DNA from: Octopus vulgaris
Lineage: Eukaryota
Direction of reading: 5' to 3'
Assembly: GCA_951406725.2 (NCBI GenBank)
Contig: OX597831.1
Coordinates: 81,282,001 to 81,346,000 of the forward strand
DNA: 64,000 nt
Both the position numbers and the translations under genes were made by a program. Positions within the stretch are counted from its first letter, which is position 1. Every line of letters begins with the position of its first letter. Shown here piece by piece: positions 2,370-48,475 of this stretch. The notes beneath the pieces were generated by a model. The model searched no databases and was not told where the DNA came from. It saw only the letters and a program-made list of their open reading frames with translations.

Positions 2370-3056
2370 CCAAGGAAAAACCAAGCCACAGGCATTGGAT
2401 TTCTTGGAAAGAGGGTCGAATGTATACGGAACAAAGACAGGATGCCACACGAATATAAATACAAGAAACAAAAATATATATAAAAAACACGAAGGTGGAC
2501 AGTACAAGGACAGGAGCGTCTTACGACTTTAGACAATTTTTAACTTATCTTGGCTGGCGTATATGAAAAAAGCCTTCAACGGCAAAAACGAAAACAACGT
2601 GAGCGTGGCCGCGGTCAGGCCGAAATGACCAGTTTGAACGCGGTCACGGGAGAGCACGGAAGAAAGAGAAAGAAAAAAGAAAGGCAGGGAGCAAGGAATC
2701 AAAGAGAGAGGGAAAGAAAGGGACGAAGGCACCAGGGGAGAGAGAGAGAGAGAAGGGAGTAATAAGAGAGGGGAGAAGAAACAGGATTGGCACAGCAATA
2801 GAAATAACGGTGCAAATAAGGTGGGGGAAGAATCAGAGGCAAGAAAAGAGAAAGACACATACTATAGAGAGAGAGTGTGTAAAGACGTCGTACAAGGTAA
2901 AAATGTGTAGTATACATAGGAGATAGGGGTACGTAACGCCGCAATAATATATGTATAGAAATTAAATATAAAATATAAATTACAAAGTGGGACAAGAACG
3001 CAAAAACACACAAGGAGACGACACAAAAAAACAGACGGGTCACTCGAAGCCTCTAA

Positions 3057-3129
3057 TCTTCAGTCGGGAACCGGATCATCTTAGTAATTTCGGCTGTTTA
3101 ATCTCGATATTACTCCGACCCGGCCAGCC
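3057..3129 (-). ncRNA. Rearranged hammerhead-like RNA motif (copy 2)
   Basis: Same sequence as 2297-2369, in the second terminal repeat. Confidence 0.65.
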
Positions 3130-3170
3130 CCAAGGAAAAACCAAGCCACAGGCATTGGATTTCTTGGAAA

Positions 3171-5425
<2,255 letters not shown>

Positions 5426-6642: not shown

Positions 6643-6935
6643 AAAGACGAAACAAAAGTGGAACACGAACGTATCTGGCGACAACAAAAACATCCGGACA
6701 ATTAAACGATAAAAAAAGGACAGGTAAAATCAATGATAGCTTTCTATCGTCAGTCGAGTTTCAGATCGTCGTTACAGTTTCGGCCGGTTACACTCGTGAC
6801 TACTCCAATCTGGCGGGCCTCAAGAAAATCTAAGATAAGAACACTAGATTCTTGGGAAGAAAGCAGGCGAATGTAAACGAAAAGAAGGACGAAAAATGCA
6901 GAATTACAAGTACAAATAACAGGACATTAACAACA
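6643..6935 (-). mobile_element. Diverged copy of the 2202-2530 retrozyme-like unit
   Basis: Colinear similarity (acaaaagtgggaacacgaacg..., ..ctagattcttgggaagaaagc..gaatgtaaacga); left end at (TA)n. Confidence 0.6.
6747..6819 (-). ncRNA. Rearranged hammerhead-like RNA motif (copy 3, diverged)
   Basis: GGCC-cgc-CAGAUUG-ga-GUAGU-C-ACGAGU-guaacc-GGCC-GAA-ACUGU-aacga-CGAUCUG-aa-ACUCGA-CUGACGA, with compensatory changes relative to copy 1. Confidence 0.65.
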
Positions 6936-41680: not shown

Positions 41681-41758
41681 ATATATATATATATATATAT
41701 ATGTTAGAAATATTGAATTTCTAAATGTCTCAGAGAGACATAAGCGGTGGTGGAGCGA

Positions 41759-42074
41759 TATAGTGGTCGTATGCTGTCAACTCAATGTGACAGTCCCGTA
41801 AGGGAATTACGCCACCGCCATTTAGCCCTAGGAAACATCGACGTCTCCTGTCGGCTTTGACACAATTTCTGTGTCCTTATATTTTCAAAGGGGAGGCAAT
41901 CACCCCAGCAAGCCGGGGTCCCAACTGGCGGGGATGAATGCCTCCCCTTTGCAAATATAAGGACACAGAAAATGTGTCAAAGCCGACAGGAGACGTCGAT
42001 GTTTCCTAGGGCTAAATGGCGGTGGTGTAATTCCCTTACGGGACTGTCACATTGAGTTGGCGGTATACAACCAC

Positions 42075-42078
<4 letters not shown>
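41759..42078. mobile_element. ~320-bp near-perfect foldback element
   Basis: Arms 41759-41906 and 41930-42078, loop ~23 nt. The right end abuts (TA)n. Shares catttagccc.agg.aacatc with the 1097 element. Confidence 0.8.
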
Positions 42079-42115
<37 letters not shown>

Positions 42116-45499: not shown

Positions 45500-46442
45500 T
45501 GCAGGAAATAAATACTGCATAAGTCATTCACTGCAGTAGTTTACGCCGGTTTATTTGCCGACGATGTCAAACTGGTCGCTCCTCGCAGTGATATAGATGA
45601 TCTTCGTCGATGCCTCCACCAAGTTTGGAGATGGTCAAACGAATGGGACCTGTGTCTGAACGTGTCAAAGTGCTGTCATCTGCCTGTTGGCTCCTTTCCT
45701 GCAACTCAACTTGATTTCGAGCCGGGTCGTCTGCTGCTGGAGAAGACCGACCAAGTAAAGGATCTGGGTATCTTGGTGGATTCTTCCTCTCGCCTTCGGC
45801 CCAATGCGTCCATGCTGCCAACTAAGCACGCGGAGTTCTGTTTTTGATTCGACGGTCATTCGGAATGCTCACAGCAGCCATATTCCTACCGCTCTATGTC
45901 ACGCTGGTGAGACCCATATTGGAGTACGGGATTCAAACCTCTTCTCCTTATCTCCTCAAAGACATACATAATCTCGAAAGAGTCCAGAAGCTGGCTACCC
46001 GCATGGTTCTTGGTCTCAAGCATTTGTCTTATGACGAAATTCTGAAGACGCTCGACTTTTATTCTCTCGAAAAACGACGACGACGTGGTGATCTCATTCT
46101 CGCTCACAACATCATAAGCAGAAAGTGTAACCTCTCGAAAGAGCTGTTCTTCACTCCTGCTCCAGAGCGTGGGCTGCGGGGTCACTTCGAAAAGCTCTAT
46201 CTACGACGATTTCATCTCAATCGAAGGAGAGGGGCTTTCTCCGTCCGGGGTGCTGATCCGTGGAATAAGCTGCCGGACGAGATAGTGAAGATGCCGACGT
46301 CCGTTCGGTTCAAAGTCTCTCTTGACCTCAAATGGCCTGAACTCTTTGTATGACCACCCTCCCTGTACATAATTCCCTGTCCCCCTACATGGCCTTGCTT
46401 TTTGAGCCAATAAAAATTGAATTGAATTGAATTGAATTGAAT

Positions 46443-46446
<4 letters not shown>
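45500..46446 (+). mobile_element. CR1-clade LINE 3' fragment
   Basis: FADDVKL, LNVSKC, KDLGILVD, LYVTLVRPILEY, LERVQKLATRM, RRRRGDLI, RGH, WNKLP; 3' tail (AATTG)n at ~46415-46446. Confidence 0.9.
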
Positions 46447-46487
<41 letters not shown>

Positions 46488-46490
46488 ACT

Positions 46491-46765
46491 GATATCCAAT
46501 CTACAGTGGAGAAGGCTAGCCACTGGATTTGGTTAAAAAGAGACGATGAGCGATGGCTAGAAGTATATTGAGTTCTTCATAACCAGCTGATCTAGCAAGC
46601 GGGGCCTCATATCAGTGAGCGGGGCCGGTGCGCATCGATGCCGTCGAGAGGTAGGCCCTGAAACGGCGCGCATTCTCTCCTGATGACCCCATACACTTGC
46701 TAGCTTCCGATATACGGAGCTTTTAACTAGTAGCACTTGCATGTGCAAGTTGTTTGCAAGACATC
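46491..46765 (+). mobile_element. 3' end of an RLE-type non-LTR element (HERO-like)
   Basis: ORF terminus DIQSTVEKASHWIWLKRDDERWLEVY* (46491-46571) resembles HERO C-termini as I recall them. It is followed by a GC-rich structured 3' UTR. Confidence 0.6.
46621..46686 (+). ncRNA. Rearranged hammerhead-like RNA motif (compact copy in LINE 3' UTR)
   Basis: GGGGCC-g-GUGCGC-aucgau-GCCGU-C-GAGAGG-ua-GGCCCU-GAA-ACGGC-GCGCAU-UCUCUC-CUGAUGA; all four stems pair fully. Confidence 0.75.
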
Positions 46766-47929: not shown

Positions 47930-48475
47930 ACAAAATCAAAATAAACAACATGATATCAGGAGGTGATTCAGTACGACCGTTTCAAGCGTCTCCATTTCAT
48001 TGAACAATGCAATCATTATATCAATTTAAATGCAGTGCTATCTTCAGCTGCATAAATAAATAGGATTTTTTAATCAGTTAGATGCATTAATATAATTTTA
48101 CTCAAATTCTCTAATAGAGCGAGAAGAGGGAGAAAGTCCATGTTGCTATTAATGTGACTCAGAATATACGACCCGAATCACATTAATAGCAACATTGACT
48201 TTCTCCCTCTTCTCGCTCTATTAGAGAATTTGAGTAAAATTATATTAATGCGTCCAACTGATTAAAAAATTATATTTATTTATGCAGCTGAGGATAGCCC
48301 TGCATTTAAATTGATGTAATGATTGCATTGGTCAGTTGAATGGAGCTGCTTGAAGCAGTCGTACTGCATCACCGTTTGATATCCTGTTGCTTATTCACCT
48401 TACTTTGAGTTGTACGAATACTACCGCACTAACTTGGTGCTTCAACTTAAGTATCCAATTCAACTGAATCTCAAT
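47930..48475. mobile_element. ~450-bp foldback, family H2, with a hammerhead in each arm
   Basis: Arms ~47940-48160 and 48175-48396. Hammerheads at 47966-48053 (minus: CUGAAGA..GAAACGGUCGUA) and 48282-48369 (plus: CUGAGGA..GAAGCAGUCGUA). Confidence 0.8.

Follow-up and report, generated by a model that had tools for sequence, protein, structure and literature searches.

The closest described relatives of the RNA motif analyzed here are the type-SGC (HRIMA-1) and type-CSG hammerheads, which resemble it in their core bases, in a short linker between stems I and II and in an extra I-II helix (PMC10085705). Both block orders self-cleave in vitro. As far as the available text of that report goes, these RNAs come from metatranscriptomes and metagenomes with no known eukaryote, type CSG having been reported from two metagenome sequences only, whereas the hosts of the present motif are animal retrotransposons. 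In both described types block C is intact, while in the motif its chain is interrupted at the A9-G10.1 step, and two helices, P0 and Pb, bridge the gap. The S-G-C block order, common to the motif and type SGC (PMC10085705), is thus already known; the split core with its four-way junction is new.

Two further systems are comparable. Hammerheads found in PLEs and in non-LTR retrozymes likewise lie in the terminal repeats of partial tandems, and the literature on Penelope elements and on retrozymes puts forward a model in which the RNA is cut, circularized and copied for more than one unit (PMC4209133, PMC7761336). Those ribozymes are of type I, often minimal and dimeric, whereas the motif is a pseudoknotted monomeric form, and its host differs from theirs in being a LINE that encodes an R2-like RT together with an endonuclease of the restriction-like kind. 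R2 and other LINEs carry HDV-like ribozymes, which are also self-cleaving RNAs of non-LTR retrotransposons but belong to another class and sit at the 5' end (PMC7761336), while the motif is located in a 3' UTR and its cleavage is predicted. We found no description of the split-core form, or of a hammerhead in such LINE tails, in the open-access literature, and the available parts of PMC3088659, PMC11300833 and bioRxiv 10.64898/2026.07.22.740005 contain neither.

The window, i.e. the whole 64,000-nt stretch of Octopus vulgaris DNA that was analyzed, contains the motif in a truncated LINE copy of a family designated F1. The relevant features are as follows.

46485-46764, plus strand: F1 LINE copy identified by DNA search, 5'-truncated, 280 nt, comprising the last 28 codons and the entire 3' UTR
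46485-46571, plus strand: C-terminal end of the ORF (28 codons) with the stop codon at 46569-71
46592-46604, plus strand: 5' strand of P0, made of an 8-bp outer part (46592-99, pairing with 46696-703) and GGGG (46601-04, pairing with CCCC at 46687-90)
46605-46620, plus strand: hairpin Pb, the four-way junction arm adjoining P0 and stem II; its final base is mutated here
46621-46626, plus strand: 5' strand of stem II (IIa), G10.1 first, separated from CUGAUGA and pairing with IIb at 46654-59
46628-46633, plus strand: 5' strand of helix X, pairing with 46668-73, the counterpart of the stem I-II interaction in types SGC and CSG (PMC10085705)
46640-46651, plus strand: block S, with the stem III 5' strand (46640-44), GUC, C17 (C46645) and a stem I strand (46646-51)
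46654-46667, plus strand: block G, with the stem II 3' strand (46654-59), GAAA (46660-63) and the stem III 3' strand (46663-67)
46674-46690, plus strand: stem I partner (46674-79), CUGAUGA (46680-86) and the P0 strand CCCC (46687-90) in place of stem II
46696-46764, plus strand: outer P0 strand followed by the tail, whose fixed 3' end lies about 119 nt past the predicted cut

An initial annotation, made from the letters of the window, had described a compact 66-nt motif, and all of its named segments were recovered in their places within 46621-46686. The closure of GGGG on CCCC, which it had offered as a possibility, is present as part of P0; hairpin Pb and the outer 8-bp helix are additions to that description. 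The site is on the sense strand, with IIa beginning 49 nt past the stop codon, in agreement with the proposed distance of about 50 nt. The associated ORF, called HERO-like, does end upstream of the motif, but what the window retains of it is just the last 28 codons of a 5'-truncated copy. The full F1 unit is 3,737 nt long and carries a single ORF of 1,091 aa with an RVT_1 domain, for which the closest solved structures are R2 proteins. This ORF combines an N-terminal zinc finger, an RT, a C-terminal CCHC and a PD-(D/E)xK-like endonuclease, as expected for an R2-group RLE LINE (zinc finger and nuclease motifs were identified by eye). We provisionally refer to F1 as HERO-type, a label taken over from the initial annotation. 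DNA search returned 2,282 F1 candidates in the 2.8-Gb genome, and the core pattern gave 1,171 genome matches versus 18 for a reversed control. The copy number of F1 in the genome is at least 1,171. The longer ORF at 45826-46353 is part of another LINE rather than of the F1 copy: immediately upstream of the latter there is a plus-strand LINE fragment unlike F1 (45530-46445) that terminates in (AATTG)n and presumably represents a CR1/L2-like C-terminus.

All hammerhead core bases are present in the motif (CUGANGA, GAAA and UH), the blocks follow each other in the order S-G-C, and stems I, II and III flank the core and covary. What departs from a hammerhead is the strand after CUGAUGA. Instead of running directly (0-2 nt) into stem II, it forms 0-3 of four possible pairs in the 18 aligned rows, and the stem II partner is found at the 5' end of the motif. 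The link from A9 to G10.1 is interrupted, and P0 and Pb occupy its place: P0 begins at the base right after A9, Pb takes up exactly the stretch that separates P0 from stem II, and not a single unpaired base is left where core, P0, Pb and stem II meet. Helix X, 4-10 bp long, is present in all 18 rows. Standard hammerhead types I-III and intact SGC are excluded because stem II is absent after CUGAUGA; the intact block C that type SGC has at its 3' end is missing as well. Rfam hammerhead families gave no matches at the gathering threshold in seven loci, and an Rfam scan of the window returned no relevant match among the matches listed (150 of 236). We infer that the A9-G12 pair has stem II stacked beneath it and that P0 stacks on Pb; in such a perfect four-way junction the core would regain its normal form. 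The motif would behave like a type-SGC/CSG hammerhead, yet lacks the uninterrupted core of both. That it adopts a hammerhead-type fold with a split core is practically certain; that it is catalytic, i.e. self-cleaves as hammerheads do, is likely.

The window copy is decayed in comparison with most copies, as position 46620 is mutated, breaking the base of Pb, and 46659 yields a G-U at 10.1-11.1. Its predicted cut lies directly 3' of C46645. Nested folding recovers P0 and stem III in most copies and stems I and II in none, and the folding z-score of the window copy (-0.58) is expected for pseudoknots, yet lends no support to the fold. The third pair of stem I (46648/46677) is G-C in 18/18 rows with variable adjacent pairs and is possibly a tertiary contact.

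Conservation was examined in 64 metagenome loci encoding related proteins. A strict descriptor matched 13 of the 64, compared with no match in 11.4 Mb of dinucleotide shuffles; every match was on the sense strand just 3' of the ORF, and 12 of the 13 had the junction. The absence of shuffle matches, together with the reversed control in the genome, excludes a chance origin. Tails were scored against the motif in those 45 of the 64 loci whose sequence extends to the end of the ORF (19 being left out), with a threshold of at least 19/23, which was attained by 21 sense tails and by none of the 45 antisense ones; among tails at least 300 nt long the count was 15/34. Loss of the motif from homologous LINE 3' UTRs, named in advance as grounds for abandoning the idea, was not what these tails showed. 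The remaining 24 of 45 tails, which scored below 19/23, include short tails, decayed-looking copies and one entire divergent branch on the tree, a label that requires at least three changes. In the tails of three loci (L131, L137 and L145) we noticed by eye a tRNA-like sequence, located 3' of the stop codon and 5' of the motif.

Given the core, the P0/Pb junction was found in 8/8 cells in 11/11 loci (shuffle p 0.001-0.015 each), the loci being partly related. Helices were compared in 18 distinct rows, hand-anchored and partly related (three own families and 15 loci). In these rows, picked by a descriptor that requires stems I, II and III to pair, 400 of 414 cells were paired and two-sided changes occurred at 20 of the 23 pairs; own strands paired at 0.96-0.98 and swapped strands at 0.49-0.70. 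Among core positions, N7 is filled by all four bases and position 17 by C, A or U but never G, while 10.1-11.1 is G-C in 17/18 rows and U16.1-A15.1 is found in 18/18.

Three further copies in the window with the same segment order, noted already in the initial annotation, were confirmed on the minus strand, with cores at 6753, 3063 and 2303. They belong to two non-coding repeat families, F2 and F3, with 2,189 and 1,297 genome candidates, respectively.

3049-3153, minus strand: copy of F2, a non-coding partial-tandem repeat family; a second copy is at about 2289-2393
6739-6842, minus strand: copy of the F3 repeat family, decayed, same architecture

Within F2 and F3, copies have up to about 1 kb of sequence in common, arranged in partial tandems; no shared ORF, such as the RT and GIY-YIG ORF expected of a PLE, occurs among the output listed. 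Seven loci (L274, L275, L277, L280, L288, L289 and L290) are internally deleted LINE derivatives of about 1.1-1.4 kb that retain both ends and the run-on junction described below, i.e. non-autonomous forms resembling retrozymes, and such derivatives may be the origin of F2 and F3. The region between the F2 and F3 copies (3200-5300) is very AT-rich, and a segment of about 700 nt is duplicated within it.

The same architecture also occurs in Naiads, which are Penelope-like elements. The available text of PMC8557442 (Craig et al. 2021) states that no canonical hammerhead was found in them and flags only "HHR_core" and "HHR_half_core" strings. By eye, we recognized the split form with its junction in at least 7 of 54 Naiad consensus 3' ends, including three from Acropora and two from Octopus, and an intact type-CSG hammerhead in at least 5 of the 54, these being nematode entries. 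The total of at least 12/54 refers to the places viewed for three core strings (60/62, 23/23 and 30/43). Circularly permuting type CSG, with the opening placed at A9-G10.1, gives the split form. The proposal of an RNA module shared between unrelated retroelements is therefore supported in a wider form than originally put, as it extends to related LINEs in other hosts and to Naiads.

Copy ends bear on how the motif might be used. The 3' ends of F1 copies cluster about 119 nt beyond the predicted cut and none is at the cut among the 100 matches listed; the suggested role in 3'-end processing at this site is not supported. In a sample of 90 copies the 5' ends scatter, with one within 5 nt of the cut and none exactly at it, and about 99% of copies are continuous through the site. 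Among 30 loci that hold the element start (two pairs of which have common flanks), 25 cross one invariant junction from 3' end to 5' end; the other five are truncated before the junction, and none starts at it. The shortest run-on past the junction is 6 nt and the longest exceeds 1,400 nt, with a median of about 240 nt. The same arrangement, with an ORF start downstream of the tail, is seen in two loci from other hosts (L131 and L132).

Some copies begin at the first base after the cut, namely 3-4 of 100 among the copies listed. Among truncations in positions -11 to 0, 5 of 13 fall exactly there (12 positions; binomial p 0.003), where one of the 13 was taken from the listed matches and the comparison was designed after cases had been seen, two of the five starts having prompted it; on fresh contigs only, the figure is 3/9 (p about 0.03, by hand). 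No starts were found in +4 to +14 in 30 loci (30 of 34). Copies that start at the cut correspond to the predicted 119-nt 3' product and make up less than 1% of 854. The equivalent comparison for F2 gave by eye three clean starts among about eight in the 100 of 153 matches listed, swamped by a subfamily variant. Two contigs beginning at 46647 were rejected as RNA ends, since they reflect places where the assembly graph breaks, 30 nt ahead of the variant at 46677, and A-to-G differences in these contigs were rejected as editing, being genomic variants (46702 in 38 of 87 copies; also X15 and X16).

A fold with catalytic bases and genomic copies that run from end to start together make RNA cutting and rejoining into a circle likely. 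We therefore favor, with some reservation, a reading in which this conserved split hammerhead-type RNA cuts after C46645 and the ends of the unit RNA are joined again, yielding a circular template for the element's RT, although the unit-length circle taken by itself stands at an even chance. As in the model put forward for PLEs and retrozymes, a partial-tandem transcript would be cut at both motif copies, and the two ends, held by the motif's own helices, would then be ligated by the ribozyme or by a host ligase. The RT would prime at an internal position, about 119 nt beyond the cut, and could complete one round of the circle; copies starting at the cut would stem from the occasional nick that is left unsealed. 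We count the SGC/CSG-order precedent and the excess of cut-site starts in favor of this reading.

That slight excess, and likewise the 5'-end ribozymes known in R2 and other LINEs (PMC7761336), would also fit an active hammerhead that only frees the element RNA from an upstream transcript, the 5' end being made by the upstream motif of a partial tandem, the template staying linear and run-on stemming from uncut tandems or from an RT jump from 5' end to 3' end. Run-on lengths are indeed similar to those of fresh 3' truncations, which is compatible with a template jump and counts against the circle. On the other hand, long copies show no accumulation at -119, where the upstream motif would be cut (0 of 25), and most extend past it, the junction length is constant in all crossing copies whereas solo 3' ends vary, and the downstream motif would remove the priming tail; we consider this explanation unlikely. 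LINE proteins bind their RNA at the place that the motif occupies. This location, as well as the continuity of nearly all copies across the cut site, agrees with a non-catalytic fold, derived from a hammerhead or mimicking one, kept as a binding platform for the element protein at priming. Such a role is improbable given that none of the catalytic letters is lost while the helices change in sequence, both among elements whose proteins are about 33-60% identical and in the unrelated Naiads, and that intact type-CSG hammerheads take the same place in nematode Naiads. Cleavage in trans, suggested in the initial annotation, received no support. Dimeric or trans action of the motif, in which two molecules or copies would each contribute strands, has parallels in the minimal PLE hammerheads that function as dimers (PMC4209133) and would make use of the two motifs in each partial tandem; however, every helix is complete in cis, the long stem III included, and a second molecule cannot supply the A9-G10.1 link (at most three of four pairs in 18 rows), which P0 and Pb do. 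We regard it as very improbable.

The cut-and-rejoin reading has its own difficulties. The split core violates the rule of an uninterrupted CUGANGA plus stem II given in the available text of PMC10085705. As reported in the accessible part of PMC3705267, a viroid hammerhead tolerates an additional base between A9 and G10.1, but C or G inserted there is detrimental. The read-through of nearly all copies, the lack of 5' ends exactly at the site in the sample of 90 and the 24 of 45 related tails with low scores also weigh against it.

More tentatively still, and at slightly less than an even chance, we suggest that a clade of R2-like LINEs and the Naiads share an undescribed hammerhead topology, circularize their mRNA and use rolling reverse transcription, which would leave these LINEs without a fixed 5' end. 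If true, a seventh wiring would be added to the six thought possible for hammerheads, the core strand of which could then be opened, and it would be explained why descriptor searches overlooked ribozymes in Naiads. These would also be the first non-circular hammerhead permutations in animal genomes. An RNA of 110 nt would then suffice to test the long-standing circle model of partial-tandem retrotransposons, and the test could be made in a LINE that is a relative of R2, the family used for gene insertion.

Elsewhere in the window there are near-perfect long inverted repeats at 47940-48395 and 41758-42079, with spacers of 14 and 2 nt, respectively.
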